A DNA stretch of 17,434 nucleotides, from the IMG/VR virus record IMGVR_UViG_2671180606_000003, positions 1 through 17,434 of that record. One strand, written 5' to 3'. The notes beneath the pieces are model-generated. The model saw only the letters and a list, made by a program, of their open reading frames with translations. It was not told the origin of the DNA and searched no databases. The DNA is from a virus (Duplodnaviria > Heunggongvirae > Uroviricota > Caudoviricetes). Positions 1 through 16,402 of this stretch are shown here, one piece after another. Both the position numbers and the translations under genes were made by a program. Position 1 is the stretch's first letter, and every line of letters begins with the position of its first letter.

Positions 1-483
1 ATGACGAAGAAAAAAGCACATAAACTTGGTTCAGCGACCATCGCGCTTAACAAGCGCGCCCGTCACGAATACTTTATCGAAGAAGAGTTCGAAGCGGGAC
101 TTGCCCTGCAAGGCTGGGAGGTTAAATCCCTGCGCGCAGGAAAAGCCAATATCAGCGACAGCTACGTCCTTCTGCGTGACGGAGAGGCATTTCTGTTTGG
201 CGCTAACATCACGCCAATGGCCGTGGCCTCCACGCATGTGGTGTGCGATCCTACCCGTACCCGCAAGTTACTTCTCAACCAGCGCGAACTGGACTCATTG
301 TACGGTCGCGTCAATCGAGAAGGCTATACCGTAGTGGCGCTCTCCCTATACTGGAAAAATGCCTGGTGCAAAGTGAAAATCGGCGTCGCCAAAGGTAAGA
401 AACAGCACGATAAACGTTCAGACATCAAAGAACGCGAATGGCAGGTGGATAAAGCGCGTATCATGAAAAACGCCCACCGTTAA
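1..483 (+). CDS. smpB: SsrA-binding protein SmpB
   Basis: Full-length 160-aa ORF; the translation (MTKKKAHK...[72 protein letters not shown]...) matches enterobacterial SmpB as I recall it, and it sits directly upstream of ssrA as in E. coli. Confidence 0.96.
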
Positions 484-645
484 ACCTGTAGTCCAATTAT
501 TGACCAGTTCCTCACCGCGCCTCCCTCTCCGGCGGCGCGAATGAACATCTTATTGGCTATCACATCCGACACAAATGTTGCCATCCCATTGCTTAATCGA
601 ATAAAAATCAGGCTACATGGGTGCTAAATCTTTAATGATAACGCC

Positions 646-690
646 ATTGAGGCTGGTCATGGCGCTCATAAATCTGGTATACTTACCGTT
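646..690 (+). promoter_or_regulatory. Candidate ssrA promoter region (-10-like 'TATACT' at 678-683)
   Basis: AT-rich stretch just upstream of the tmRNA 5' end with a -10-like hexamer; no convincing -35 found and the transcription start is not determinable from sequence alone. Confidence 0.3.
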
Positions 691-697
691 ACACATT

Positions 698-1060
698 GGG
701 GCTGATTCTGGATTCGACGGGATTTGCGAAACCCAAGGTGCATGCCGAGGGGCGGTTGGCCTCGTAAAAAGCCGCAAAAAATAGTCGCAAACGACGAAAA
801 CTACGCTTTAGCAGCTTAATAACCTGCTTAGAGCCCTCTCTCCCTAGCCTCCGCTCTTAGGACGGGGATCAAGAGAGGTCAAACCCAAAAGAGATCGCGT
901 GGAAGCCCTGCCTGGGGTTGAAGCGTTAAAACTTAATCAGGCTAGTTTGTTAGTGGCGTGTCCGTCCGCAGCTGGCAAGCGAATGTAAAGACTGACTAAG
1001 CATGTAGTACCGAGGATGTAGGAATTTCGGACGCGGGTTCAACTCCCGCCAGCTCCACCA
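698..1060 (+). ncRNA. ssrA: tmRNA (transfer-messenger RNA, SsrA)
   Basis: Starts 'GGGGCTGATTCTGGATTCGACGGG', contains the tag-peptide reading frame 'gcaaacgacgaaaactacgctttagcagcttaa' (ANDENYALAA-stop) and ends with the tRNA-like 3' end '...GGTTCAACTCCCGCCAGCTCCACCA'; 363 nt. Confidence 0.97.
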
Positions 1061-1070
1061 AATAAATCAA

Positions 1071-1103
1071 GGGGTTACGTGAAAGCGTAGCCCCTTTTTC
1101 TTT
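1071..1103 (+). terminator. Rho-independent terminator downstream of ssrA (probably prophage-supplied)
   Basis: 9-bp stem 'ggggttacg'/'cgtagcccc' (one G-U pair) with loop 'tgaaag', followed by 'tttttcttt'. Confidence 0.55.
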
Positions 1104-1118
1104 GGTAGTGGCGGCAAA

Positions 1119-1157
1119 ATGGCGACAGACTATTGCGTCCATCTTGCCTGTCGCCAT
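1119..1157. repeat. Perfect 10-bp inverted repeat ('atggcgacag' ... 'ctgtcgccat', 19-nt spacer) upstream of the 1184 ORF
   Basis: Read directly from the sequence at 1119-1128 and 1148-1157; about 30 nt upstream of the ORF start, so a candidate operator or recombinase/IHF-arm site. Confidence 0.6.
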
Positions 1158-1183
1158 CTTGAAATCATGCAAAGAGGTTTCAC

Positions 1184-1666
1184 ATGGAAGAACTTCACTT
1201 TGTTTACATCAATGCAAATGGTCGTATCGGTGTTCACTCAATACAGAGCATCAGTTATAGCGAAAATCATATACAGGGCATTTGTAAGAACACCGATCGA
1301 ATAAAAACCTTCCGAAAAGACCGCATTCTTAAACAGTACGATTCACCAGAACAAGCCATTCAGGAATGCGCGTCATTCCTCCCCGAAAACTACTCACATC
1401 TCACTAAGCAGTCTGGTCCGAAAAAAAATACATTCGATGTGTGTTTCACCGGATTTAAGAAAGCAGATAAAGAAAGATTGGTTGATAAGGCGAATGAACA
1501 AGGATTAACGGTAAGAGCCTCTGTAACCCAAAGCCTTCAGATGCTCTGTTGCGGTTACAATGCAGGCCCATCGAAAGTATCGGCAGCCAGGATGAAAGGC
1601 ACGATCATCATAGATGAGCCTGGCTTTATACATTTTCTTGAAACGGGTGAGATCCCAGATGAATAA
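1184..1666 (+). CDS. Cargo protein with a C-terminal BRCT-like domain (160 aa), function unknown
   Basis: ATG with upstream 'agagg' RBS. The C-terminal approx. 75 aa (FDVCFTGFKKADKERLVDKANEQGLTVRASVTQS...AARMKGTIIIDEPGFIHFLETG) follow the BRCT pattern seen at the C-terminus of NAD-dependent DNA ligases. The N-terminal approx. 75 aa carry a 'TFRKDRI' motif weakly reminiscent of WYL-type regulators. Lies between the att/ssrA junction and ogr. Confidence 0.7.
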   Translation: MEELHFVYINANGRIGVHSIQSISYSENHIQGICKNTDRIKTFRKDRILKQYDSPEQAIQECASFLPENYSHLTKQSGPKKNTFDVCFTGFKKADKERLVDKANEQGLTVRASVTQSLQMLCCGYNAGPSKVSAARMKGTIIIDEPGFIHFLETGEIPDE

Positions 1667-1694
1667 AAACCTGCCGTAGCAGGTTCTCTTTCTC
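1662..1694. terminator. Candidate bidirectional terminator between the convergent BRCT gene and ogr
   Basis: Hairpin 'aacctgc'-cgta-'gcaggtt' flanked by an A-run upstream and a T-rich run downstream. Confidence 0.45.
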
Positions 1695-1911
1695 AGAAAT
1701 TCATATGCCCCTGACCACCTGGCAATGGATGTGGAGGAGCAGTAGCAATCAGTGCGGGTGTCACAATAAACCGGACCACTGTTTCATGGGTAACAAAAGT
1801 GCTCCCGCAGTTAATATTTTGGCACTGGCAGTAACGCTCTTTGGTGCTTTCAGTTACTTGAAAACTGCTCCTTGTGTGTGCCGCATGACCACACTTTGGA
1901 CAATTCATCAT
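1693..1911 (-). CDS. ogr: Ogr/Delta-family zinc-finger late-gene transcription activator
   Basis: Translation contains 'MNCPKCGHAAHTRSS...TKERYCQCQNINCGSTF...HPLPGGQ', the C4 zinc-finger signature of P2 Ogr. Start placed at the internal Met pair giving approx. 72 aa; the six-frame ORF extends to 1956. Confidence 0.85.
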   Translation of the reverse strand: MMNCPKCGHAAHTRSSFQVTESTKERYCQCQNINCGSTFVTHETVVRFIVTPALIATAPPHPLPGGQGHMNF

Positions 1912-1979
1912 ATCCAGATCCCTACCTTTGCTATCAGAATCATTGCAATGATACACAAAATATCAATATTGAGAACACA

Positions 1980-3080
1980 TTATTCCATTTCAAGATCACT
2001 TATCCTCACTTCGAGTTCAATGCTGGTTGTAAAACCGTTATCCGGGCTGACGGTATGTGTCAGGGTGGTAATGGTCCATTCCGCATCATCTATCGGCTGT
2101 TTAAAGCCACTGACTTTCACTGGCATTTCCGTGTAGAGATCTGCCCGCCCTTCCGCCAGTTGTAGCAAGAATGCCGCAACACCGCGTTGCAGACGTTCCC
2201 ACTGCATTTTCGCCGCTCGTTCGGCGTTGCTCCGGTTGGCATAAGTGCGATTAAGTACCAGCACGTTTTCATCCGTACCCACCAGGTAATCGCCCTGCTT
2301 CGCTTCCGGCTCTTTCTTCTGCTTCTTAGTCCTGCGCTTACGCTTCACCGTGGTGCTTTCTTTCTTCGCGGGTTCGCGGGTATGCAACCAGCTGGCAATT
2401 ACGCCCGTATAGGCTCCGCGATCTGCCAGGGTAAAGCGGTGACTGTCGCCGTCCTTACGCGTGATAGTGATCACCGGCAGTGGTTTACCGCTGGCGCTTT
2501 TGCCCTGTCCCTGCCGGATGAATAACAGATTGCCATTTTTCACCGACGCAATAGCACCGTACTGGCGCGCCAGCCGCATCAGAAAACTGCCGTCACTCTC
2601 ATTAGTCTGGTCTATATGTTCCACGGGCTTATCCGACAGGTCATTACCCAGTGCCATCTTCAGCTTGTGACGCGCGGCTATTTCCTTGACCACTTCCCCG
2701 ACAGTGGTCTTGTGCCACGACTTTTCACGGCGGGTATTCAGCGTTTCACGAAAATCAGCACTTCGCGCCCGGATAGTCAGGCGGTCCGGTGCGCCAGTGT
2801 GTTCAATCTCGTCCACCGTGAATGCCCCTTTCGGGAAAAGCGGCTGCCCCTTCCAGCCCAGCGCCAGCGTAATGACCGCACCACGGCGCGGCAGCGCTAT
2901 TTTTCCATCGGCGTCGTCCAGCTCCAGATCAAGCTGGTCCGCTTCAAAGCCCCGGTTATCCGTCAGCGTCAGCCTCATCAGGCGGTTATCCAGCACAGTG
3001 GTGATATCCCTGCCCTCAATACTGATGCTGAATGCGGGAGTTTTGTTGCCTTTGTTAAGCAGTTCAGAGCTGAAATTCAC
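1980..3080 (-). CDS. D: P2-family tail protein D (gpD)
   Basis: 366-aa ORF immediately downstream of U with an ATGA start/stop overlap; size and position (last late gene before ogr) match P2/186 gpD. Confidence 0.88.
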   Translation of the reverse strand: MNFSSELLNKGNKTPAFSISIEGRDITTVLDNRLMRLTLTDNRGFEADQLDLELDDADGKIALPRRGAVITLALGWKGQPLFPKGAFTVDEIEHTGAPDRLTIRARSADFRETLNTRREKSWHKTTVGEVVKEIAARHKLKMALGNDLSDKPVEHIDQTNESDGSFLMRLARQYGAIASVKNGNLLFIRQGQGKSASGKPLPVITITRKDGDSHRFTLADRGAYTGVIASWLHTREPAKKESTTVKRKRRTKKQKKEPEAKQGDYLVGTDENVLVLNRTYANRSNAERAAKMQWERLQRGVAAFLLQLAEGRADLYTEMPVKVSGFKQPIDDAEWTITTLTHTVSPDNGFTTSIELEVRISDLEME

Positions 3081-3562
3081 GACAGCAGCCCTCCCACCGT
3101 TTTACTGATATCACTTAAGGCAGATGTTGCCGTGTCCTGCAGATTATTCAGTTGCGTACTGAGATCACCGAACATATCGGACAGGGATTCATCCACCCGT
3201 TTGAGCGACAGGGTGAACTCAATCCGCCGCGGCATACCGTCGCGGAAAAACTCCGTTTTAGTCAGATTCAGTCCCTCAATCACATACATGCCGTAAATCG
3301 TGCCGCTGCCTTCAATCAGGGGCCATGCTTTTCCCTGTTCTGCCATCTGCTCCAGAGCCAGCAACGACAGCCTGCCGCCCGTTATCTCCGGCATAAGAAC
3401 ACCAGAAAGCGTCAGCATGTCGTTGTCCGGTCCCAGAAACTGCGTGGACGGACGACGGTTTACCCGGCTGTTTGCCGCATGTCGCCAGCTGCGTTGATAC
3501 TGCAGTTCCTGATACGGAACGGTGCGCAGCATAAACACGTACAATCCCAGCACCATCATCAT
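3077..3562 (-). CDS. U: P2-family tail protein U (gpU)
   Basis: 161-aa ORF between the tape-measure remnant and D, the P2 order T-U-D-ogr; size matches gpU (approx. 159 aa). Confidence 0.85.
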   Translation of the reverse strand: MMMVLGLYVFMLRTVPYQELQYQRSWRHAANSRVNRRPSTQFLGPDNDMLTLSGVLMPEITGGRLSLLALEQMAEQGKAWPLIEGSGTIYGMYVIEGLNLTKTEFFRDGMPRRIEFTLSLKRVDESLSDMFGDLSTQLNNLQDTATSALSDISKTVGGLLS

Positions 3563-4479
3563 GCGTCGTATCCCCCCTGATCGCTGTAGTTACTCCTGGC
3601 TTTTGCCTTCAGCCTGCGTTCACGTTCATCAAGCTGGCGTGCCACCTCCCGCGCAATATCCTGCGCACTTTGTCCTGGCTGCATCTGAATGATGATCTGC
3701 GTCGGTGCCTCAATCCTGTAAACGGGCGGCACAGTGGCTGCACGACTCACCATCGCTTCGCCGCCTTTCGCGGGAAGTGCCAAAGGATGCAACGGTGGAA
3801 GCTCTGCAGGCGCGGCAGCAACGCCCATCATTCCGGCAACAACGGCAGCCAGTGCAGCTGTATTTCTCCGGCTGGTCACATTTGCCGGGCCGTTAACAAT
3901 TTCCGGCCCGTTTTCACCGACGATGCCAAACTGCCCGCGCGGGATATAGCCGCCGCTGTCATACATCCCCGCAAAGCCATATCCCCATGACGGAAAACCA
4001 CCCGATGGCATCATCACTTTACCGTTTGTATTCACCGTCGCAGGTTGCTGACGCGTCACACTTTCCGGTAGTTTCGCCTTTGCGGCCTCTTTACTGACAA
4101 CGCCGAGTTTCTCCAGCAACCAGGAAACGCCGGATTTCAGGGAGTCCAGCGGATGCATGACCATATTCAGCCCTTCCGCCAGTGCCTCCCCGAATCGCCG
4201 CCCCATTGCCGCTGCACTCTGCAGTTCGGCAGAGGTTGACTTAACGGGCGTCAGCAGATCAGTAAACCAGCCCCACAGCGCCTGTACTTTGTCGCCAATC
4301 CACTGGAACACGGGCTTAAGCGGTTCGAATGCTGCACTGACGGGACCTGCCGCCGCTTTGAATCCTTCCACCACGCCACCAAGAAATGCGGTGATGGGTT
4401 GCCAGTATTTCCAGACAACCAGCGCCACGCCCGCCAGTGCAGTAACCACAAGACCTATCGGACTGAGCAGAGCACCTAC
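3559..4479 (-). pseudogene. T: Tail tape-measure protein (gpT), C-terminal fragment only
   Basis: Open frame of approx. 300 codons directly upstream of U, Gly/Ala-rich tape-measure-like C-terminus. P2 gpT is approx. 815 aa, but here the frame is closed by an in-frame stop at 4480-4482 and abuts an opposite-strand gene, so the N-terminal two-thirds are deleted. Confidence 0.7.
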
Positions 4480-4501
4480 CTACTGGTTTGTGCAATACGG
4501 C

Positions 4502-5092
4502 ATGACTACACAGCCGTATCAGTTCACGAAAGGCAGCATTTTTCACCTGATGGAACCGGATATCAACCAGGAGATCTACGGCCTGCCCGGTTATCTTTCT
4601 GCCATTCCGTCAGCCCTGCTCAACGAGTCCGCCACGCTGTTCCGCCGCAAGTATTACATTAACGGCAGCCACGCAGGCTTCATCATGTACATGACCGACG
4701 CCGCGCAGAATCAGGAGGATGTGAACAACCTCCGCAACGCGATGAAAAGCGCCAAAGGTCCAGGCAACTTCCGCAACCTGTTTATGTACTCACCTAACGG
4801 CAAAAAAGACGGGCTTCAGATCATCCCATTGTCAGAAGTCGCGGCGAAGGATGAATTTCTTAACATCAAGAACGTGAGTCGGGATGACATGATGGCAGCG
4901 CACCGCGTGCCGCCGCAAATGATGGGGATTATGCCGAATAATGTTGGGGGGTTTGGGGATGTGGAAAAGGCAAGCCGTGTATTCGTCCGAAATGAGCTAA
5001 TGCCACTACAAAAGCGATTACAGGAGATGAATGATTGGCTTGGCAAGGAGGCGATACAGTTTAATACCTACTCACTAGATATAGTCCCATAA
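4502..5092 (+). pseudogene. Q: Probable portal protein (gpQ-like) C-terminal fragment
   Basis: First in-frame ATG after the deletion junction; the upstream part of the six-frame ORF (4157-4501) is antisense to the tape-measure remnant. Strand and position (C-terminus pointing toward the cos-side region) fit P2 gene Q; the translation has a phage-portal-like flavour, unverified. Confidence 0.45.
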
Positions 5093-5095
5093 TAA

Positions 5096-5125
5096 GAAAA
5101 GCCACCGTTTGGTGGCTTTTCTTCA
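5096..5125. terminator. Bidirectional rho-independent terminator
   Basis: 'aaaagccacc'-gttt-'ggtggctttt': perfect 10-bp stem with A-run and T-run flanks, between the stop at 5092 (+) and the stop at 5127 (-). Confidence 0.65.
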
Positions 5126-5126
5126 T

Positions 5127-5867
5127 TTACTCAATAGGTTCAAACTCATCCTGAGGAATCAGCGTCGATTGACAGGCTTGGCTTAGTACTCCTGATAATT
5201 TACATAATAACCGATAGTTATGAGGAGCATCATCGCTAATCTTTTCGACCGTTAAAGTGATTGATTTTGGATCATCCAATAACATCTTCTTGATATCATT
5301 ACTTAAATACCTAGGGCAGTAACCAACGATTTCAGCTGGTTTATCTGCACGAACGACAACAGCATCCCCATCGTATTCATTTTGAAGATCCAAGCAAAGA
5401 CGCAAAATTTGCCCCGGTTTCAATTCAGATACACGAGCATTAGCTAAGCTATTTAAGTAACCAAGTCCATGTAAGAAGAAAAAATGCTCAAAGTTACCAT
5501 CAGAATCAACATCAATTTTTTTGAAAATCTGCAGCTGATCAGTGCTTCGTAAGCCTCCCGAGCGAGCAAGAATATCGATAGGATTTACCTTATCTTCTTC
5601 AAATCCAAGCCATTTAATGAAACTCGGATACTCTGGACGTCTCGGTGATAAAAGGCGATTTTTAAAAAGAGGAAACAATTCTTCCGAAACATAAGTTTCA
5701 CGAACATCACTCATGCCGCTAAACTTTGTAAATTTAGTAGATTTAAGAGCACCTTTGGTATACCTGAAAACATACCCCGATTTGCGCTCTTGCAAGTTAC
5801 CAACAACATGCCAGTCTCTGGTATCTGGTGCCTGCCATGCGACGTAAACGGAGTTTGTATTAGTCAT
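5127..5867 (-). CDS. HipA-N-terminal-like (HipS-like) module fused to a C-terminal HIRAN domain (246 aa)
   Basis: Start overlaps the kinase stop in an ATGA. The N-terminal approx. 110 aa (VYVAWQ...VVGNL...YVFRY...LFPLFKNRLLSP...IDILARSGGLRS) resemble the HipA N-terminal subdomain / HipS. The C-terminal approx. 110 aa (HGLGYLNS...LKPGQILRLCLDLQNEYDGDAVVVRADKPAEIVGYCPRYLSNDIKKMLLDD...ITLTVEKI) match the HIRAN pattern as in the HLTF N-terminus. Confidence 0.8.
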   Translation of the reverse strand: MTNTNSVYVAWQAPDTRDWHVVGNLQERKSGYVFRYTKGALKSTKFTKFSGMSDVRETYVSEELFPLFKNRLLSPRRPEYPSFIKWLGFEEDKVNPIDILARSGGLRSTDQLQIFKKIDVDSDGNFEHFFFLHGLGYLNSLANARVSELKPGQILRLCLDLQNEYDGDAVVVRADKPAEIVGYCPRYLSNDIKKMLLDDPKSITLTVEKISDDAPHNYRLLCKLSGVLSQACQSTLIPQDEFEPIE

Positions 5868-6778
5868 TCTAGTAACCTTCTGCGATTTTCCATTACCATT
5901 AACGTTGCAAATCTACGTGCACTGTCGGATATACACGATGAAGGCACTTGGTTAAACACATCTGTAATGGAATCTTCTGTTAAAACGCTCAACTTACCTA
6001 ACCAATGGTCGCGAGCGGCAACTCTCCCTTCAACTGCATGTTGAAATGCTTCAACGGTCAGCAAGGGCTTTTTATCAGTTTTTGCTTTGAATAGCTCAGA
6101 GCGAGCTTTTCTTACAAAACATGGGATTTGTCGATTTTTATCTTTAGTATTAAGCCGTTCGTTACGCTCATCATCTAACATCTCCCTTCCTAAACTAGCG
6201 GCATGATCGTATGTTGGACACAAAAACTGCTCACCAGTTTCATTGTTAAGCATGATCGCCCAATTTTCATGATGGCGATCTTGATTACTCACAAGTGCAT
6301 CGAGCATCAAATATCCACAAAATACATCTGCTGCATTTAGCCCGGTTAGATCATATACACTCGGAGGAGGCTTGATAGATTCCCTATCCAAACAACCCAA
6401 TACCCTTGTGACAGTGTGTTCTCTGACCCTTACCGGCTTTTCCCCGGCTTGTAAAGGCCCAGGATAATCGAATGTCGAACTGTGAAGCACTTCATTTCCC
6501 ATTACCATCCGGAAACCAGATGGAATGATATTCTGAGTCACCACACCGAATCGACCATTGTATCGCGCCAAATCATAGCTAGCATGTGGAATGTTAAGCA
6601 AATGACATAACTCAGCAGCACACTTTTCAGACCAATGCTCGCCAGTACCTGGCCTAGAGTACTTAAACAACTGCAAATTTACAGTGTCATCGGAGAAATA
6701 GAACCAAAACTTCTCTTTGGTTCCTAACTGTTCAAGATCGTTAGCTACGGGGCTAAGCTCTACCAATTGGTATGGCAT
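5864..6778 (-). CDS. HipA-family (HipT/CtkA-like) Ser/Thr kinase core domain (304 aa)
   Basis: P-loop-like 'GTKEKFW' (compare HipA 'GAQEKTAL') and catalytic-loop 'LVSNQDRHHENWAIM' (compare HipA 'IGATDGHAKNFSV'); lacks the HipA N-terminal subdomain. RBS-like 'aggga' 7 nt upstream of the ATG. AT-rich relative to the phage backbone. Confidence 0.85.
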   Translation of the reverse strand: MPYQLVELSPVANDLEQLGTKEKFWFYFSDDTVNLQLFKYSRPGTGEHWSEKCAAELCHLLNIPHASYDLARYNGRFGVVTQNIIPSGFRMVMGNEVLHSSTFDYPGPLQAGEKPVRVREHTVTRVLGCLDRESIKPPPSVYDLTGLNAADVFCGYLMLDALVSNQDRHHENWAIMLNNETGEQFLCPTYDHAASLGREMLDDERNERLNTKDKNRQIPCFVRKARSELFKAKTDKKPLLTVEAFQHAVEGRVAARDHWLGKLSVLTEDSITDVFNQVPSSCISDSARRFATLMVMENRRRLLE

Positions 6779-6937
6779 CTGACATCCCTGTTTAGCGGAT
6801 TATGAATAAGTTAGGTTCCATTTTATCCAAACATTGTCAAATACTCTAAGATTTATTAGATGATAGAGCGATACTGTATGCATGTCCAGCAATCAAATCA
6901 ATATATAACTCTTATATGACTTAGCGCGCGCTCGTAT

Positions 6938-6956
6938 CCCCGCCACGCCTGCCCGC
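6938..6956 (-). other. Possible degenerate cos-site remnant
   Basis: The minus strand reads 'GGCGTGGCGGGGATACGAG'; the first 12 nt equal the start of the 19-nt 186 cohesive end as I recall it (GGCGTGGCGGGGAAAGCAT), about 15/19 overall. Relies on a remembered cos sequence. Confidence 0.3.
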
Positions 6957-7386
6957 TTTGTGTAGTGGTTTTCATGCAGTTGCATAACATAAGCAAAAGC
7001 CCGTCAGAACTGGCAGGCTTCGACATAAACGATCCACTAGCGATCATTCATTTTCATGCAGCATAGGTATGCACCAGAGTTACTTTGAGGTGCAATGGAT
7101 GATACCTACAGATTTGCTACCCAAGGTCATGCTGAAAATCTATCGCATCTGTATGATGCCGCGGACATAGCGAAATCTCCCCATGCAGTGACAAACTACT
7201 TGAGTAAATACTGTTGTGTTACCACAAGAAGAGATTTCAAAAGGAAAACAACGCTATGTTATCTAGTACATATAGCTATAAATGTCTTAATTTTAGCCAA
7301 TACATTGAATTAAATGAAAAAATACTTTAGTTTGTATACTATTTTTTAGCGTTCAAGATTATGCAATTTTTTGGAGAGAACTATAA

Positions 7387-8355
7387 GTGGGATCTTTCAG
7401 TTTACTTGCATCACGACCAATACCAACTGTGCTAGAAACAAGACAGTTTAACTCAGTTAACGGCAGTGACGCCGAATCTTATGCAATGAGTCAATTCATT
7501 CTTGCTTGTAGAGGAGAGGGGCACTGGGGTTCCAGGGAAGACGACAATTCAAAAATAGATTTAATATTATCCTTCGAACATCCATGGGCATCAAAAGAAA
7601 GAATGCTTATATTGTCGCAAGTTAAATCAGGGGCAACTTATGGTCATTTATTAGAGAAAGGTTTTGTATTAAATTCGGCCGCAAAAAAAGCAGCCAAAAG
7701 GACAACTCACCATATATGTGTCGTTTGGGTTGACAGAACTAATCGTAAAGCATTTTGGGCCTATATACATCCAAACACTACCCTTAAAAACCAAACTTAT
7801 GGAGAATATCACTTAATCACTCCGGCTACACGGTTTGACCTGGCTCGCTGTATGTCCATGGTACGTGCAGGTGAAACTGGAGCAAAAGGAATCCATGTAA
7901 GAAGAAGAAACTCACTACTTAATAATCGGCGAGCGTTTGTTAAAAAACGTTATTCTGAACAGAAAGAAATCACATCTCCGGTGCTTGGGAAAATCGAGCT
8001 TACACGGCTGGGTTGGAGACATATGTTCAGAAAGAGTCGCAGAGAAGAAAACAAAGCAACGAGTTTGGACATTATTCCCTACTTGAGAAATTTACTAGTT
8101 CGGTTTCCTTCAACTCATGCTATTACTTCTTCTGATGTCCGTGATTACGGCTGTTTTACTTACCAAAGAAGAGAGCACTTATTGAAATTTAATAATCTAG
8201 AGGTTACTTATGCCAAAGGAGAGGGAAAAAATAAAGTATGTGCTTATATTCGTGTTATAGAAGAAATAAGGTATCCAAAAGATTGGACTAACGCGGTAAT
8301 GCTATCACAGCAGGTTGAAAGACGAGTGGTTTTGAAGTCAGCATATTATAAATAA
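7387..8355 (+). CDS. Hypothetical cargo protein (322 aa), possibly a PD-(D/E)xK-like nuclease fold
   Basis: GTG start 9 nt downstream of 'GGAGAG'. AT-rich. The N-terminal region carries 'KIDLILSFEH...SQVKSG', compatible with a D...E...(Q/E)xK restriction-endonuclease-like motif; the C-terminus is basic. Domain assignment is weak. Confidence 0.65.
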   Translation: MGSFSLLASRPIPTVLETRQFNSVNGSDAESYAMSQFILACRGEGHWGSREDDNSKIDLILSFEHPWASKERMLILSQVKSGATYGHLLEKGFVLNSAAKKAAKRTTHHICVVWVDRTNRKAFWAYIHPNTTLKNQTYGEYHLITPATRFDLARCMSMVRAGETGAKGIHVRRRNSLLNNRRAFVKKRYSEQKEITSPVLGKIELTRLGWRHMFRKSRREENKATSLDIIPYLRNLLVRFPSTHAITSSDVRDYGCFTYQRREHLLKFNNLEVTYAKGEGKNKVCAYIRVIEEIRYPKDWTNAVMLSQQVERRVVLKSAYYK

Positions 8356-8940
8356 CGAGGCCGTTGGGAAGCCAGCACTTGCGCCCATGCTCTGCCAGAT
8401 TCCGGTTTCGAATCGGTTCTCTGGCAATAATGCGGATAGCGTACTGGGCATCAGCCTTAGCTTTTGCACTCAACCCAACGACCAAGTGGTGAAGCATACT
8501 AGTAAAGAAACTTTAATTCTAGATGTTTTGAAGCAATTCTCACATCAAGTATTAATTTTTCTAAAGCAATGACCTAATGGTATGTCAGGTTTCAACGAAA
8601 ATTGGCAACCAATCTAGATAACTGTACCTTTTCAAAAAACTGGTGCGTATCGTTAGTCTCCTTTCGCCGTTGTTCCAGTCTGGTCGCTTCAATAAAAAGC
8701 AAGGCCGCCGTACAGCGAAACTATATAATCATAGCTTAAGCCAAATCACTCATCTAAGGTGTGGCTCCATTAGTAGTTTGAGCGCTAACAGCCCCTCTGG
8801 CGATAAAACTACTCAATACCTGGCACGAAACAAAATCTGGAAGTTACTATTTTTTTGCCCATGACTAACGCCTCGCATGGCTCGTTGATCAACCTTGCTA
8901 GCGTCAGAATCAAGTCCTAACGCCAGCAACGTTCCTAAGC

Positions 8941-9129
8941 CTAACCGGGGAGATCCATTGAACGGTTGTACTCATGAGTACGGATTTTCGCCATTAACTC
9001 ATCGGTCAGCTCCGAAACCCACTGGATAGCAAGCCGCTTCTCTTCATCATCGCACTCACTAGCCGCTACAAGCTTAAGAAAAAAATCAATGCGCTGGAGC
9101 TTCAAAGACTCCAAAAAATAGTCCTGCAT
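8941..9129 (-). CDS. Small protein (62 aa) downstream of a LexA-box promoter; candidate SOS-inducible antirepressor-type gene
   Basis: Strong RBS (minus strand 'TAGGAGGAAAG' then ATG) and a LexA-box promoter about 50 nt upstream; lies between gene A and the cos-side region, where 186 carries its LexA-controlled tum operon. Confidence 0.6.
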   Translation of the reverse strand: MQDYFLESLKLQRIDFFLKLVAASECDDEEKRLAIQWVSELTDELMAKIRTHEYNRSMDLPG

Positions 9130-9171
9130 CTTTCCTCCTATGACACCACACGCAATACTGTATGTATAACC

Positions 9172-9214
9172 ACTGTTTATATTTACAGTATATAATAATC
9201 TTACTGATGTAAAA
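9172..9214 (-). promoter_or_regulatory. SOS (LexA) box overlapping a sigma70-like promoter
   Basis: 'aCTGTttatatttACAGta' (9172-9189) fits the CTGT-N8-ACAG LexA consensus. Minus-strand -35 'TTTTAC' (9214-9209) and -10 'TATACT' (9192-9187), spacer 16, with the box overlapping the -10. Confidence 0.6.
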
Positions 9215-9283
9215 CGTTTTTTTTACGCTTATCAGCCTGATATGCCTGGTATTATTAAGAGCACGAATTGTTAACCCGCGTAA

Positions 9284-11698
9284 TTAATACAGGTTCCGCC
9301 ACTTATCATCTTCCTGCAAACGCTGGTTCCGATAGAAGATACGCAGGCCTGCTCCTGACGGAATACTGCCGCCACGAAGGAGTAAATCGACCTCTTTCTC
9401 GCTGCCATCAAATCCTCTGGACTTCAGTTCATAGACGAGCTGCTGTCGCTGATGGTCTGTAATTCGCTGTTTGTAGTCTTTACGCCGTTTCGGTTTCACC
9501 AGGCGTAACCTTGCAGCCAGTTCCCGGCGCTCTTTTTTGCTCATACTGTGCAGGTATTCGTGCAACTCCTTGTCATCCATGCGGGTAATGTCCGTTCTGG
9601 TATCCCCATCAGCTGATTTGTCTTTCCCTTGTTGGTTCAAATTTTCAGCAAGGGGACAGTTATTGCCACGAGTCCAAGGGGCGCAAGCGCCCTGGTCGGC
9701 TGCCGCCTCCTGAACGTCAACGGCTTTACGAACCATTTTCCACTTCACTGCATGAGTGCAGATCTTGCCCTCTGCAATGGGTGACCAGATGCCATAAATA
9801 CGAATACCGTGATCGCCATAGGCGGTCGGCTCTTCGTTGATTTCATAAGCGGTTCTGATGAGGTGATATTTACGGGGAACCAGTACGCCGCCCTGCTTCA
9901 TGATGTAGGTGGCAAAGCAACCAGCATCAGCTGCAGCCAGAATGGCATCAAGGCGCGGGTTATCCAGTACCGGCGCACCTGCTTTTTTGTCACCCTGTTG
10001 CCTTGCCGCCTGACCAGCCAGCAATCGCAGTTCACGGTAAGCCTGACGCCCCGGAATGCCAAAGAAGCGGAATTGCTGAACACGATGCAGAGACGCCCAG
10101 GCATTAACGTATTCAGCGTTATCACGCAGAGATTTACCCGTTTCCTTGCTGATCTCGCCAGCCAGACCACGCCCGTCAATGTTCTTACTGATATATTTCG
10201 CGATGTAGCTTGTCGGCGTTCCTTTACGCGGGTTAATCAACTCAGACTTAAAGCGCGGCCCAGTGTTATTGCCCAGCTCCTCGCGGTCTTCACGGATGGC
10301 AAACTTACGCAGTAATGCAGTGATGGCGCGGCGGTCTTTTTTGCGCATAAAACACAACAGGTGCCAGTGAACTGTACCGTCATGATGCGGCTCAGCCACC
10401 CGCACGCCATACCAGCGCAATCCGGCTTTGTGCATCGCCTTACGAAATGCAGCAAACATGCCGACCAGATAGTCGCTGCTTTGTCTTACCGTCGAGTTTG
10501 TCCAGGTCGGGTTGGGTCTGCCGTTATTGAGCGTGGAATGGAAACGCGACGGACAGGTGATAGTGTAGAAAACGGCGCAGTCACTGCGCATTTCCGCGAT
10601 AAGCTCCAGACCTTTAACACAGGCCATCATCTCATTGCGGCGATGCGCCGGGTTGCTGCTGCTGGCGTTTACCACATCTTCCATATCCAGCGTGTCGCCG
10701 TCTTCGTTCACCAGTTCATGAGAACGGAAAAACTCCAGCGACTTACGGCGCTGCTCACGTTTATGCATCACGGCTTCATAGCTGACATAGGGGGATGCTT
10801 TTTTGCTGACCAGGCAGACAGCACGCAACTGCTCTTCCCGCCATTCGCAACGCATCTTCCATAATTTCCGATACCACCAGTCGGCACACAACATACGCGC
10901 CAGCGAACCCGGAATGAGTTCATAGGGCACGGGTTTACGGCGGTTTCTTTTCCGACGGAGTTGCTCAAACGCAGGCGGAATAACATCCAGACGCAGGGTT
11001 TCCGCTGCCACCTTTTCCCATGTTTTGCGGATTTCTTCTGGCTTAACGTCATCGGTGGCATACAAATCACCACAAGCGGCATCAAGGCACATACTCATAT
11101 GCGCAGCGACAAGGGTAGACAGGCGCTTCACCTGATCCTGACTCATTTCAGGCAGGATAAGCAGGCCATCCAGCCCTTCATGGCTTGCCATAAAGCGAAA
11201 AGAAGTGGATAGCTGACAGTCGCGGACATGCTCCAGTCGTTCCAGACATGGCTTAATCGTCTCACGCAAATAGCGGGAATAAGCCTTTGGCCTGCCCAGG
11301 CTGCTGAAATATTCAATACGTTGCATCAGCGGCTTGCTGATATGGGAAGGCTGGGCGTTGACGTCAGCCAGAATGACCATGTCTGGATTAAAACGCTGCT
11401 GCTCATGCGCCAGCTTTGCCCGGCTAATGAGCTTATCCTGCTCCATTTCGCGCTGGACAGGATCACGGGATTCATTAAAGAAATAACGCTCCCAGACCTG
11501 ATCACTCAGTGCCTCGCGGCGCAGTTGTTCCTGCTCGTTATCGGCAGCGTACAGAGTGATCAGGTTTGAAAGTGCAGAAACCGGCGCAACTTCCGCCGGG
11601 TCCAGATAAGGGTTAATGGCCTTTTTTGGGCTGTTCCATGAGAATGCTGCGGCGACCTCGTTAAAGCCGCTGCAGTTGTTCATATCAGCATGGCTCAT
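9284..11698 (-). CDS. A: P2/186-family replication initiation protein A (rolling-circle nickase)
   Basis: Approx. 804-aa ORF; start placed at the Met whose ATG overlaps the dam stop (ATGA), while the six-frame ORF starts at 11725. Contains the active-site tyrosine motif 'YIAKYISK'; follows dam as in 186-like phages. Confidence 0.88.
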
Positions 11699-12552
11699 GC
11701 ACGCACTCCGTACACGGCGGAACAATCCACGCCACGCGAAGGATCAAATCCTACCCAGCAGCGCGGCCCGGAAACAGCAATGATTTCTGTTGCAGATTTA
11801 CTCTCACCAGCTGCCACGCCGATGCTGCGTTTTGCCTTGATGTAGTGGTGAGTAAAATTGCGATACAGCGAACGGATCAGGGATGTGTCACTGTTAGAAA
11901 TAATGACCGGATATCCTTCTGATGACCGATGTTCAAGAACAGATGCCAGGTGATACTGGTCATCTTCAGTGAAACCATCAGTGTGATAGCCTGAAAACGT
12001 ACCGTCATAAGGCGGATCGCAATACACCACATCCCCCGCGTGCAACATCGCCAGCGTTTCATCGAAGCTGGCGCAGATAAACGTTGCCCGCTGAGCTTTT
12101 ACTGCAAATGCACGAATTTCTTTTTCAGGAAAATACGGATTTTTATAATTACCGTAGGGAATGTTGAAATGCCCGCTCTTGTTATAGCGACATAAACCAC
12201 GGTAACCGTGACGATTGAGATACAGGAAATATATCGCTTTCATGAAATCAGTAATTTCAGTTGAGTAATTAAACTCCTGCCTTATGTTGTAATAATCCAT
12301 CTCCCTGTTTGCGTTCTCAAATAAAACTCTGGCGCGAGATATAAACGATTCACAATCAGCGGCAACCTTTTTATAGAGGTTGATTAAATCAGGATTAATA
12401 TCCGCAACCAGATAGCTGGGATAATCCGTCTCCATCATCACAGCACAGGAACCCGCGAAAGGTTCAACCAGTCGCGGGCCAGCAGGAAGATGTTTTTTCA
12501 GTTCGGACATTATGGCAGTTTTATTTCCCGCCCATTTCAGGATGGTGCTCAT
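11695..12552 (-). CDS. dam: DNA adenine methyltransferase (Dam family)
   Basis: 'ILKWAGNK', 'VEPFAGS' and 'VVYCDPPY' motifs and close overall resemblance to E. coli Dam; start placed at '[11 protein letters not shown]', whose ATG overlaps the upstream TraR stop (the six-frame ORF extends to 12612). Confidence 0.92.
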
Positions 12553-12776
12553 ACAGCACCTCCGTTGTAATGTTTGCCTTTCAGCTCTGCGATTTCCTGA
12601 CAGGTAATGCAAAGCTGCACACCCGGAATGGCACGGCGGCGTGCTGGCGGAATTGGCGCTTCACACTCAATGCAAAGCATGCGGGACACGCCCGGCGTTT
12701 TGGCACGGGCAGCACGGATATGGCGTTGGCGTTCTTCTTCAACGCGCTGCTGTACGAGATCCATTGCATCAGCCAT
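12549..12776 (-). CDS. TraR/DksA-family C4 zinc-finger protein (phage type)
   Basis: 75 aa with 'CIECEAPIPPARRRAIPGVQLCITCQ' (CxxC-N17-CxxC), typical of P2/186 early-operon TraR-like proteins. Confidence 0.85.
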   Translation of the reverse strand: MADAMDLVQQRVEEERQRHIRAARAKTPGVSRMLCIECEAPIPPARRRAIPGVQLCITCQEIAELKGKHYNGGAV

Positions 12777-13015
12777 TAGTGGATCTCCTGCGCTTCGTTC
12801 TGGATTGCTTCAGCAGTCACACGAAGCAGTTCTGCCGCTTCGACGTGGGTTAGCTGGCGGGATGTGATATGACACGCCAGGCTATCAAGGCGAGCTGCCA
12901 TTGCTTCAGCCCTTGCCCGGCGTTCTTCCAGACGAGCCTCTGTCAGTAAAATATTAAGCCCTGCGTCATCCGGTCCGGTTTTGGTCGAGAGGGTTTCAAT
13001 ATTACGCATAATCAA
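12776..13015 (-). CDS. Hypothetical phage early protein (79 aa)
   Basis: ORF whose stop overlaps the TraR start by 1 nt (TAATG); position in the early operon between cII and A. Confidence 0.6.
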   Translation of the reverse strand: MIMRNIETLSTKTGPDDAGLNILLTEARLEERRARAEAMAARLDSLACHITSRQLTHVEAAELLRVTAEAIQNEAQEIH

Positions 13016-13076
13016 TTCTCCTGAATTTAGATAAAGGGATGCCCGGCGGGTTTACGCCATTAATTTCATTAGTTGG

Positions 13077-13418
13077 TTAATTCGGCATGGTTAGCCGTCT
13101 GGGAAATAAGCTCACCACTGCACGAAAATGATTCATTGCTTTAATCAACTCCCGCTTTTCGTCAGTGGTCAGCTCATTAATGCTGATGCTATGACGTTCA
13201 GCTGGAATTTTTGCCATAAAGAATATGGCAGCCAGTGCCCGTTTATTTTGTTCGCTATTAATATCGCGTGGATCACGCATATCTTTAATAAACCGCTCAA
13301 GCTCTGACTCAATATTCAGACCAAAAACTTTCGCCCTTAACTCCGCAATGTGATTAAGTCCATTCAGGCGTTCACCGGGGCCTAATGGAACAGTCGCCGC
13401 AGCGCCATTAATTGCCAT
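13077..13418 (-). CDS. Hypothetical phage early protein (113 aa)
   Basis: ORF in the early-operon orientation with phage-like codon usage; no recognisable motif. Confidence 0.55.
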   Translation of the reverse strand: MAINGAAATVPLGPGERLNGLNHIAELRAKVFGLNIESELERFIKDMRDPRDINSEQNKRALAAIFFMAKIPAERHSISINELTTDEKRELIKAMNHFRAVVSLFPRRLTMPN

Positions 13419-13440
13419 AATTCATATTCCCAAAACGCAA

Positions 13441-13665
13441 CTATCGCTCTTTGTTCTTACGGTAACGCTCAAGAGGAGATATATTTTTTCGTATCATCTC
13501 TTTAACCTGCTCTCCCCGTAAAAACGTCCCATCCTTTAGCGTGAAAAAGTAACTGCCATCGCCCGACAACGACGGATAACAACAGAGCAAATCATCTTCA
13601 GATACTGAATAACTCTCCCCTCTGTAACGAAACTGATAAACCACTTCACTTTCCGCTGCATACAT
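13441..13665 (-). CDS. Hypothetical phage early protein (74 aa)
   Basis: ATG preceded by 'GGAGAAAG' with 8-nt spacing on the minus strand; plausible small protein (MYAAESEVVYQFRYRGESYSV...). Confidence 0.5.
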   Translation of the reverse strand: MYAAESEVVYQFRYRGESYSVSEDDLLCCYPSLSGDGSYFFTLKDGTFLRGEQVKEMIRKNISPLERYRKNKER

Positions 13666-13832
13666 TTTGACTTTCTCCGTTTCCCCGTGGTCAATTCAGA
13701 CAGCAATTCATCTTGTGAACGGCACGGATGCCAGCGTTTACCATCCTCACCCATGATCCAGCCGTGACCGTAGTGCATTGCCGGACTTTGTTTTACCAGC
13801 AGCGATGCAAATGATGGTTCTTTCGTCAGCAT
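13536..13832 (-). CDS. Hypothetical phage early protein (98 aa) immediately downstream of cII; 3' extent doubtful
   Basis: ATG 7 nt after the cII stop with a 'GAGGTG' RBS; its last 130 nt overlap the 13441-13665 ORF in another frame, so the real C-terminus may be shorter or the gene frameshifted. Confidence 0.4.
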   Translation of the reverse strand: MLTKEPSFASLLVKQSPAMHYGHGWIMGEDGKRWHPCRSQDELLSELTTGKRRKSKCMQRKVKWFISFVTEGRVIQYLKMICSVVIRRCRAMAVTFSR

Positions 13833-13839
13833 AAGCACC

Positions 13840-14349
13840 TCACAGCAATCCGAATGAAGCACCGAGGCCAGTTACGGTATCAACTGCACTTGCCATCGCA
13901 GGATTAGCCTGTAAACGGGCCTGCAATGAAACAGCAGCCAGCGCCATCAGTCGTGTAACAGAGTTAATGCTGCTGATCGCATCACGACGGCCTGCACTGG
14001 TTTTTACATCGCCAGAAACCGCACCAGCCGCGACACGCCCTATCTCTGCAGTTGCACTCATGACGTAATGCGGCAGTTTCTCTTTTGCCACCTCATTAAG
14101 CGGAACACATGGCAGACAATGAATCTGTGCCAGAAAACCATCTACCAGCGTTGAATCTTCAGTCAGATCGGTAAGTAGCCAGATATCTCGTGCAGTGAGC
14201 TGATGCGGTTGTTCCGGGTTCAGCTTGTTACGCAGCGTCTGGACGTTCATTCCCGCGAGTTCTGCTAGCTTCGCCATATTGTGACGTAGTGCAAAAGCTC
14301 TACAGGCTTCATCAAAATGCGGATGTTTGGAAATCTTGTAATCAAACAT
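13840..14349 (-). CDS. cII: CII-like lysogeny-establishment transcriptional activator (186 CII family)
   Basis: 169 aa, the same length as 186 CII; HTH 'NMAKLAELAGMNVQTLRNKLNPEQ'; position after apl and divergent from cI. Confidence 0.78.
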   Translation of the reverse strand: MFDYKISKHPHFDEACRAFALRHNMAKLAELAGMNVQTLRNKLNPEQPHQLTARDIWLLTDLTEDSTLVDGFLAQIHCLPCVPLNEVAKEKLPHYVMSATAEIGRVAAGAVSGDVKTSAGRRDAISSINSVTRLMALAAVSLQARLQANPAMASAVDTVTGLGASFGLL

Positions 14350-14381
14350 GGTGCTCCCTTAGAAAGTTCCCATAATTGAAA

Positions 14382-14624
14382 TTACTTACCAACAATGACG
14401 CGGAAGTTGGAATGACCGAGGGATTCACGGACCTGATCAGTTTTGTACATTAGATAACGCAGGCTTACGCGGCCTTTGTTTTTTTCTTTCTTGACCATGT
14501 ACTTAGCGAGTTGACCATGGTGAATTTTTTGGTAAACAGACCCGCGGGAAATCCCTTCCCATTCAGCGAATTCAGCAGGCGTAGCCATCTCTTTTGGTAC
14601 ACGAATTGAAATATCTGTGCTCAT
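14382..14624 (-). CDS. apl: Apl/Cox-like excisionase and transcriptional regulator
   Basis: 80-aa HTH protein (ATPAEFAEWEGISRGSVYQKIHHGQL), first gene of the leftward operon divergent from cI, as for 186 Apl. Confidence 0.7.
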   Translation of the reverse strand: MSTDISIRVPKEMATPAEFAEWEGISRGSVYQKIHHGQLAKYMVKKEKNKGRVSLRYLMYKTDQVRESLGHSNFRVIVGK

Positions 14625-14726
14625 AGTGCAGTATCTCTTGGTTTAAGCTCGTTTTATGATGTTTAACCCCAACTTCTAAACTCTCATATTAGAAGTTAAA
14701 TACAAAAATACGATCTCGTTATTGGA
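14625..14726. promoter_or_regulatory. Lysis/lysogeny switch region (pR/pL equivalents) with candidate operators
   Basis: 102-bp AT-rich spacer between divergent apl and cI. Contains a perfect 9-bp inverted repeat 'AACTTCTAA'-N9-'TTAGAAGTT' (14671-14697) and direct 'GTTTAA' repeats at 14641 and 14661; promoter hexamers not confidently assigned. Confidence 0.5.
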
Positions 14727-15377
14727 TTGTCAAATGGAGAGTTCATCTTGAAGATTAATACAGGTGCAAATACGGGAGGGAGAGAGACCATCAAAAGGCT
14801 GATGACAGCCTATGGTTTCAACACTCAGATAGCGTTGGTTGAACACCTCGAAGCATCAAAAAGCACCATGGCAAACAGGATGTTACGTGATAGCTTCCCT
14901 GCTGACTGGGTTATTCAATGTGCCCTTGAAACAGGTATTTCTCTTCTTTGGCTGACAACGGGCCAAGGGGAAATGTATCCTCAAACAGAAGAAAAAAATA
15001 AGTTCAAAAACGAGAGTTCACCTACAGTTCGCCCCCTTTCAAAGATAGTTATCCCATCAGTAAGGCAGGCAACCATTGAGAACGGAACTCTCGAAGAGAT
15101 GGGGGATGTTTTCCTTGATCAGACTTTGATACCCGGAAAAGCCGAATATTGTTTGTACGTCAAAGCTAACGACGGCAATTACATTGTTGATACATCAACA
15201 AAACAGCTTAGTAACGGAATTTGGCTCATAGACATCGACGGTATGAAAAACATCGTCAAAATTGCGCGCATACCTGGAAACAAAATAGTAGTTAACCAAG
15301 ATGACACGTCATTTGAATGTTCTGTAGATGATGTGGAAGTCGTAGGACGTGCAGTCAAAGTAATCAAGAACCTCTAA
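14727..15377 (+). CDS. cI: CI-like immunity repressor (HTH and C-terminal domain)
   Basis: HTH segment 'NTQIALVEHLEASKSTMANRMLRDSFPADWVIQCALETGISLLWL'; directly upstream of int in the same direction as in 186. The six-frame ORF starts at a TTG; the true start may be internal. Confidence 0.8.
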   Translation: MSNGEFILKINTGANTGGRETIKRLMTAYGFNTQIALVEHLEASKSTMANRMLRDSFPADWVIQCALETGISLLWLTTGQGEMYPQTEEKNKFKNESSPTVRPLSKIVIPSVRQATIENGTLEEMGDVFLDQTLIPGKAEYCLYVKANDGNYIVDTSTKQLSNGIWLIDIDGMKNIVKIARIPGNKIVVNQDDTSFECSVDDVEVVGRAVKVIKNL

Positions 15378-15380
15378 CTT

Positions 15381-16400: not shown

Positions 16401-16402
16401 TA

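Follow-up and report, generated by a model that had tools for sequence, protein, structure and literature searches.

A WYL-BRCT protein of the repressor–integrase module in P2/186-like phages: a candidate binder of single-stranded and 5′-phosphate DNA structures

The 17,434-nucleotide stretch of DNA analyzed here (IMG/VR record IMGVR_UViG_2671180606_000003, positions 1 to 17,434; hereafter the window, at its full length) is, everywhere beyond the tmRNA gene ssrA, a P2/186-like prophage of Escherichia coli. The gene that follows ssrA encodes a 160-residue, two-domain protein composed of a WYL domain and a single BRCT domain, with no enzyme domain attached. This WYL-BRCT gene is an accessory member of the repressor/integrase/attachment-site (att) module of P2/186-like phages. 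We tentatively propose that its product may be expressed in lysogens, bind structures formed of single-stranded DNA (ssDNA) and 5′-phosphates, and act against incoming or competing phage DNA. A sequence-only reading of the window had already recognized an open reading frame (ORF) between the ssrA junction and the late activator gene ogr, and the ORF is indeed found there, flanked by ssrA and a convergent ogr (Table 1).

The WYL-BRCT gene is real and under purifying selection. Identical copies of the ORF and its flanks reside at ssrA in intact prophages of other E. coli strains, near-identical copies of the gene are carried by the Peduoviridae phages Cartapus and 500465-1, and the protein is identical to WP_021534458.1, for which the NCBI pipeline supplies the name “BRCT domain-containing protein”. 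Against close alleles, the ratio of nonsynonymous to synonymous substitution rates (dN/dS) is 0.15–0.35; against homologues of 60–74% identity, dN is 0.2–0.33 and dS is saturated. An AAAGGTG/AGAGG block and the start context CACATGGAAGAA are kept across homologues in an alignment of 18 upstream regions. As had been surmised from the sequence, this is an accessory prophage gene, non-universal and present in 176 of 5426 complete E. coli genomes; its product is encoded by 28 of 50,697 phage records, and neither P2 nor 186 is among the matches listed. An IMG/VR allele of 97% identity (L057, 6001–6480) is interrupted by an internal stop codon, which shows that inactivation of the gene does occur on occasion.

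The N-terminal half, previously set apart as a small unassigned domain for which WYL was suggested, proves to be both separate and correctly guessed. An AlphaFold2 model built on a 40-sequence alignment (predicted local distance difference test score 91.1) resolves two domains on either side of a lower-confidence linker (about residues 71–84), the first domain being a small unit of five β strands plus helices that forms a five-stranded Sm/SH3-like barrel closest to solved WYL domains. The protein's own sequence yields no match to Pfam WYL (PF13280) even at E values up to 10; four longer homologues do exceed the 21.8-bit cut-off in the corresponding domain (P0137, 28.5 bits; P0243, 27.8; P0200, 27.6; P0152, 25.1). 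Furthermore, the conserved strands Y-x-Q-G-x-C and K-T-F-R-K-D-R-I occupy the W-Y-L and R-x-F-x-x-R-I positions of WYL domains. The formerly unassigned N-terminal domain is a WYL domain, which starts at residue 3 and is followed by the linker and the BRCT domain.

The WYL fold is the ligand sensor in CapW, BrxR, PafBC, and DriD, with ssDNA being the bound ligand in CapW, PafBC, and DriD; binding of ssDNA by the domain itself is documented for CapW (PMC11662680) and PafBC (PMC11804915), and CapW and BrxR are regulators of defense systems (PMC11662680, PMC9122601). In CapW, the residues that contact ssDNA are S144, R164, R168, and R184 (PMC11662680), the last of which may, judging from motif position, correspond to the conserved R44 and R47 of the TFRKDRI strand. 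No helix-turn-helix (HTH) domain was found in Pfam and NCBIfam searches, and the protein possesses neither the winged HTH (wHTH) nor the WCX of the CapW/BrxR/PafBC/DriD architecture; it is therefore not a transcription factor of that type. Scans of the protein against Pfam, NCBIfam, PHROG, and PADLOC returned sub-threshold or partial BRCT matches and one PHROG label, and no catalytic domain.

The C-terminal half is modeled as a β-α-β-β-α-β-α arrangement around a four-stranded parallel sheet (residues 85–154), which is the BRCT fold, and the family profile retrieves the BRCT chains of yeast and human RFC1 and of Thermus NAD-dependent ligases (LigA) from the PDB at E values of ~5e-5. Its Pfam BRCT (PF00533) match spans residues 84–145 and scores 18.7 bits, slightly below the gathering threshold of 21.3 bits. 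Homologues of the same family exceed the cut-off (P0243, 31.6 bits; P0118, 23.4 bits), and several are flagged as PF00533 in precomputed annotation, so membership among BRCT domains rests on fold and transitive homology. The NAD-ligase-type BRCT proposed earlier for this half is upheld on these grounds.

Conservation is concentrated where a BRCT domain would hold a phosphate. Y8, T42, T89, G90, F91, K93, L99, L121, G124, and K131 are invariant in 40 aligned homologues, and K96 is conserved in at least 90% of them. T89-G90, K96, and K131 align with the TG, R/Arg, and K/Lys positions of the RFC1 and LigA BRCTs, which in human RFC1 we take to be T415, R423, and K458. The BRCT phosphate pocket is composed of an S/T-G in the β1–α1 loop and a Lys at the start of α2 (PMC10386641), and by this alignment its residues appear intact and conserved family-wide. 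The isolated RFC1 BRCT region binds recessed 5′-phosphate DNA with a dissociation constant of ~10 nM, as cited in PMC9293004, and the BRCTs of LigA add to DNA binding (PMC10386641, PMC10504179). The 160 residues contain only one BRCT repeat, and the tandem phosphoserine-plus-+3 pocket of the BRCA1/MDC1 type is absent. Phosphopeptide recognition, as had been envisaged from the sequence, normally requires tandem BRCTs; here the domain is single and of the DNA-binding RFC1/LigA class. At its C-terminus lies a family-specific LETGEIP motif.

The genomic setting of the family is dominated by the lysogeny module. A synteny scan of one genome per species (59 loci, with search patterns from a 19-sequence alignment and simple ORF calling) identified 32 immediate same-strand upstream neighbors, whose Pfam matches include HTH_3 (14), Phage_CI_repr (12), and Peptidase_S24 (6). 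By manual reading, some 22 of the 32 are of repressor type, typically 1–40 bp away, and the downstream neighbors are often integrases. Thus, in Mannheimia phage PHL101 the WYL-BRCT gene begins 3 bp after a cI-like repressor gene, with an annotated ribosome-binding site within cI; in Vibrio phage PV94 the order is repressor, WYL-BRCT gene, one ORF, int; in Burkholderia phages it is XRE repressor, one ORF, WYL-BRCT gene; in Xenorhabdus and the metagenome contig L156 it is cI, WYL-BRCT gene, int, with gaps of 2–35 bp; and in Serratia it is HTH, Flk_N-like, WYL-BRCT gene, int. One relative is located in an Mrr/methylase/integrase island.

The slot between the WYL-BRCT gene and int is itself occupied, in other species, by varied genes, among them a BRCT-containing protein of phrog_3989 that is TerB-like by eye and is followed by int (L127, 5547–6443), a TIR-like protein (L116, 5567–6484; PADLOC TIR effector, E 1e-12), and a KAP-NTPase (L136, 5468–6922; PDC-S20, E 3e-82). 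This variety suggests a cargo hotspot inside the lysogeny operon.

The E. coli/Citrobacter/Klebsiella lineage reaches the same arrangement by way of the circular phage genome. On the maps of Cartapus and the Yersinia phage MLG42, the circular order is cI, int, a variable ORF, attP, and the WYL-BRCT gene, so that in the phage the WYL-BRCT gene still adjoins the lysogeny operon and reads in its direction. Upon integration it is cut off from cI-int and becomes the first prophage gene after ssrA. The identity of the ssrA 3′ end to related attP cores (Table 1) marks it as the attL junction, and alignment of free phage genomes reveals that the phage attP includes the ssrA 3′ end, its terminator hairpin, and the DNA from there to the ORF.

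Table 1. Positions of the WYL-BRCT gene, its domains and flanking elements, and other genes in the window
Feature	Position	Strand	Remarks
smpB	1–483		Start of window
ssrA (tmRNA)	698–1060	+	ARAGORN; 3′ end from ~1016 identical to attP core of related phages (alignment of Cartapus, MLG42, 500465-1)
ssrA intrinsic terminator hairpin with T-run	1069–1096	+	Phage-supplied copy on attP; conserved in attP of free phage genomes; not the WYL-BRCT gene's own
Direct TGGCGRCA pair, 11-bp spacing	1109–1116 and 1120–1127 (1109–1127)	+	Probable P′ arm-type integrase sites
Third, inverted copy of TGGCGACA	1149–1156	-	Right arm of 10-bp inverted repeat; E. coli lineage only
Shine-Dalgarno AGAGG	1173–1177	+	6 nt before WYL-BRCT ATG
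WYL-BRCT gene	1184–1666	+	ATG start; 160 residues plus stop
WYL-type Sm-like β-barrel plus two helices (residues 1–73)	1184–1402	+	Conserved Y8, T42, F43, R44, D46, R47 (KTFRKDRI motif)
Single BRCT, RFC1/NAD-ligase type (residues 85–154)	1436–1645	+	Pfam, PDB profile matches, AlphaFold2 model
Hairpin with T-run between convergent WYL-BRCT gene and ogr	1668–1685		Probable bidirectional terminator
ogr/Delta-like zinc-finger late activator	1693–1911	-	Convergent with WYL-BRCT gene; first late-region gene of prophage
HIRAN-domain protein	5127–5867	-	PDC-M03 component B, E 3e-93
HipA-like kinase	5864–6778	-	PDC-M03 component A, E 2e-122; 4-bp overlap with HIRAN gene
cI repressor	14727–15377	+	Pfam Phage_CI_repr/Phage_CI_C
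Integrase (int)	15381–16400	+	Pfam Int_N/Phage_integrase

The repeats upstream of the gene are understood in this same context. The perfect 10-bp inverted repeat described from the sequence exists (ATGGCGACAG/CTGTCGCCAT), lying inside 14-nt arms of 93% complementarity (1115–1128 and 1148–1161), and it is made of three copies of TGGCGRCA, an element that occurs six times in the window against 1.3 expected, with three of the six upstream of the WYL-BRCT gene. In the attP of P2-family phages, arm-type integrase sites are situated on both the P and P′ arms. The 11-bp-spaced direct pair recurs to the left and right of the attP core in Cartapus (4720/4731 and 4926/4937) and in MLG42 (4718/4729 and 4924/4935), and relatives with a different att core, which integrate at other tRNA-type sites, retain the gene-adjacent pair with co-varying sequence. 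The inverted copy is missing in MLG42 and in Citrobacter/Klebsiella-type loci. Since the pair flanks the core on both sides and persists at other sites, the palindrome is read as Int sites: the TGGCGRCA copies are best read as putative integrase arm-type sites, and an operator was rejected on the same grounds.

Of the two flanking hairpins that had also been noted, both exist, and only the downstream one can be counted toward the gene, the upstream one being the terminator of ssrA. The proposed autonomous, regulated cassette does not survive these observations, given the attP arm-type pattern of the repeats, the ssrA terminator upstream, the failure of the scan to find a sigma-70-like promoter on the plus strand, and the linkage to the lysogeny module.

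The family extends well beyond this prophage. A homologue search gathered 114 proteins from Enterobacterales and beyond, and an exhaustive profile search returned 2,577 clusters at 50% identity with E ≤ 1e-3, 878 at 1e-10, and 203 at 1e-30. Most members are standalone proteins of 155–180 residues, and small proteins of similar standalone form are encoded by SSP002 and JS26, two other phage records. Longer members are extended by an N-terminal membrane anchor (P0119, P0133, P0137, P0169, and P0243, the last also with a segment that is TerB-like by eye), a second WYL-BRCT module, or an extra BRCT. An unknown domain of ~200 residues with a W-T-Q-G...F..G motif (phrog_36782/31886) is fused at either end of WYL-BRCT modules (P0150, P0167, P0175, P0178, P0180, P0115, P0118) and in one locus is a separate gene 12 bp downstream (L099, 5508–6104). 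It has no Pfam or PDB-sequence match and corresponds only to PHROG families of unknown function, and in the one member compared with PADLOC the BRCT alone produced a match, with no effector recognized. This domain may be a missing partner or effector.

The names under which the protein is stored in databases point elsewhere. It matches PHROG 2561 (“DNA ligase”) over its full length with an E value of 5e-77, the same label appears in RefSeq for 500465-1 and PHL101, and Cartapus carries “putative exonuclease”. LigA models match only the last 70–100 residues, that is, the BRCT, at 11–19 bits against cut-offs above 369. Identity as an NAD-dependent DNA ligase was rejected on this partial BRCT match, the size of 160 residues, and the absence of adenylation, OB, Zn, and HhH domains. 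A DEDDh exonuclease was likewise rejected, the match to NF004719 covering only its C-terminal BRCT (positions 229–307 of 331) at 25 bits against a cut-off of 389. Judged by the extent of these matches, both labels are misnomers derived from BRCT tails. PADLOC-DB offers no full-length defense-protein match for the WYL-BRCT protein; its BRCT region meets the candidate PDC-S48 at the C-terminus only (positions 335–406 of 411, E 2e-7). One source of the ligase label, RefSeq NC_049342 (“Escherichia phage 500465-1”), contains host nadK, recN, bamE, ratA, and smpB in its positions 1–4300 and looks like a prophage prediction with a chromosomal flank.

We envisage that the WYL-BRCT protein would be made together with the repressor, both during the establishment of lysogeny and in lysogens. 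It would bind DNA in which a single strand adjoins a 5′-phosphate, such as gaps, nicks, and cohesive or resected ends, with the strand gripped by the WYL domain and the phosphate by the BRCT pocket. In keeping with its lack of a catalytic domain, the protein would act by occupancy or recruitment, tying up these structures on foreign phage DNA that is entering or replicating and thereby contributing to superinfection exclusion or lysogen defense. The defense role is favored because genes carried on a repressor transcript classically serve exclusion, the interval collects defense-type cargo, and membrane-tethered variants exist.

Several observations weigh against this proposal. The arginines that flank the WYL-motif strand and contact ssDNA in CapW (RWHVR) are, as a sequence pattern only, replaced by N28 and G32 around H29-I30-Q31, which leaves room for a different ligand. 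RNA and c-di-GMP are among the ligands of WYL domains (PMC11880434), and for BRCTs binding is documented to NAD+ (DNA ligase IV) and poly(ADP-ribose) (XRCC1; PMC10386641). The isoelectric point (pI) is 6.95 for the protein and 5.3 for its acidic BRCT part, which argues against strong non-specific DNA binding. Expression is also in question, for a promoter scan found no sigma-70-like promoter on the plus strand upstream of the gene, the alignment of 18 upstream regions contains no convincing conserved -35/-10, and in the E. coli arrangement the ssrA terminator intervenes. Guilt by association with defense genes is weak evidence, a fixed place by cI/int across very different repressor types fits a lysogeny role equally well, and literature searches for WYL plus BRCT and for BRCTs of P2-like prophages found no experimental study of the architecture.

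Nearly as likely as the defense role, if likewise somewhat doubtful, is a part in the control of lysogeny. The protein might sense ssDNA or lesions and adjust the repressor or prophage induction, either apart from RecA/LexA or in parallel with it, or it might, while lysogeny is being established, act on phage DNA that is replicating or nicked and so allow the genome to be closed, supercoiled, and integrated. Its fixed place by cI/int or attP in Gamma- and Betaproteobacterial P2-like phages with three repressor types speaks for such a role, and in 186-like phages the cI-int transcript is the transcript of both establishment and maintenance. Identity of 30–35% between the E. coli protein and those of Burkholderia and Mannheimia phages would be unusual for swappable defense cargo, and the WYL regulators PafBC, DriD, and CapW are DNA-damage sensors (PMC11804915, PMC11662680). 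However, the gene is missing from most P2-like phages, being sparsely represented among phage records, in which P2 and 186 do not figure among the matches listed, and it is therefore not needed for the switch; the protein has no HTH and no known repressor-binding domain, and tyrosine-recombinase integration leaves no 5′-phosphate ends. A broader formulation, in which WYL-BRCT proteins are widespread effector-less nucleic-acid sensors of temperate-phage repressor–integrase operons that convert detection of single-stranded or 5′-phosphorylated DNA, or of a nucleotide signal, into lysogen fate with BRCT rather than HTH as output, appears rather unlikely to us; such fate would comprise RecA-independent control of induction or establishment, or exclusion of competitors by occupying DNA ends.

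The closest sequence relatives of the BRCT, LigA and RFC1, together with the label of PHROG 2561, would suit an accessory of host or phage DNA repair that works like a detached non-catalytic ligase subunit, attaching to nicked or gapped DNA and there either recruiting host LigA, the beta clamp, or RecFOR or competing with them. We consider this unlikely: annotation of the inspected regions shows neither a ligase subunit A nor an adenylation domain beside the gene; the protein lacks the OB and HhH domains of LigA and has a WYL domain at its N-terminus; and the label itself stems from a partial match. Decidedly unlikely is a counter-defense decoy or sponge that sequesters the ssDNA fragments de-repressing WYL-controlled CBASS/BREX, or an NAD-derived or nucleotide messenger, and so blunts host immunity. 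A WYL-plus-BRCT protein with no output domain and small standalone relatives in SSP002 and JS26 would be fit for this purpose, WYL being the sensor of CapW/BrxR (PMC11662680, PMC9122601) and BRCTs being binders of NAD+/poly(ADP-ribose) (PMC10386641), but a place behind the repressor suits a lysogen function and not an early lytic one, membrane-anchored relatives fit poorly, and the ssDNA affinity of CapW is only micromolar (PMC11662680), such that a high copy number would be required.

Very improbable is the remaining alternative, a phosphopeptide adaptor for the HipA-like kinase within an autonomous, palindrome-controlled cassette, in spite of the intact BRCT phosphate-pocket residues and the presence of both genes in the same prophage remnant. 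The kinase and its HIRAN partner match both components of the PADLOC candidate PDC-M03 over their full length, the WYL-BRCT gene matches neither component, and in intact prophages the pair resides directly beside the portal gene, between Q and the replication gene A, a hotspot that we equate with the position of the tin/old cargo in P2. Of the 5426 E. coli genomes, 21 have the pair, the kinase is missing from all 28 phage records with a WYL-BRCT gene, and the 3.5 kb that separate the two here are an artifact of a deletion of ~20 kb. Family-wide synteny with cI and int, a single BRCT, and a palindrome composed of attP arm-type repeats are equally at odds with an adaptor. The functional link to a Ser/Thr kinase floated in the sequence-only reading was thus rejected on distribution, separate hotspot, and PDC-M03 identity, and the neighboring kinase is an unrelated defense candidate.

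The remainder of the window follows a P2/186-like order, with gpD, gpU, a truncated tape-measure gene, a portal fragment, and the HIRAN/HipA-like pair after ogr, and replication gene A, dam, cII, cI, int, and an ORF running off the window end in the right part. The tape-measure gene, cut to 296 codons (3559–4449, minus strand), abuts the portal fragment (4157–5092, plus strand), in which the Pfam portal match begins at residue 113, and the junction falls at ~4450–4490. The prophage is a deletion remnant: the head, lysis, and tail genes annotated between T and portal in intact relatives are gone, and the cargo and lysogeny genes are intact. Two plus-strand ORFs have no Pfam or PADLOC match, one at 7387–8355 in the Q/A hotspot beside the kinase pair, and one at 16403–17434, directly 3′ of int and running off the end, where Cartapus has a different gene annotated as a RES-like protein. 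Intact relatives in E. coli strains 4012 (31149–32433) and D3 (29361–30161) encode a TIR-domain protein in the interval from the baseplate gene V to the virion-morphogenesis genes; the TIR gene of strain 4012 is shortened and adjoined by an IS1 element.

WYL domains have been viewed as ssDNA sensors that switch on DNA-damage or anti-phage programs always via an attached HTH, and here one is joined to a BRCT instead. If the WYL-BRCT protein indeed reads lesions or invading DNA, it would represent a very small new module for lysogen decisions or exclusion, and a simple reagent for recognizing gaps or ends. In addition, the misleading “DNA ligase” and “exonuclease” database labels are corrected.

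The WYL-BRCT architecture has been noticed before in surveys and is generically annotated; the function put forward here is predicted. WYL-BRCT and TerB-WYL-BRCT are listed by Makarova et al. 2014 (PMC4012209), citing Anantharaman et al. 2012, and these surveys give the same domain combination and list the fusion only. The minimal 160-residue phage form, its place behind cI or at attP, and the BRCT subclass are not described in the literature searched. Compared to the single BRCTs of LigA and RFC1, the present domain is free of an attached enzyme or ATPase, acidic, and distinguished by its LETGEIP motif. In phage lambda, rexAB are lysogen-expressed genes co-transcribed with the repressor, and the WYL-BRCT gene shares their accessory position directly 3′ of the immunity repressor on the same strand, with no relation in sequence or fold; the analogy is one of position. 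The BRCT-bearing subunit B of the split NAD-ligase in T5-like phages (PDB 9hu3_B) has a catalytic subunit A as partner, other ligase domains, and no WYL. With CapW, BrxR, PafBC, and DriD the protein has the WYL sensor in common, whereas wHTH and WCX are replaced by a BRCT as the output domain.

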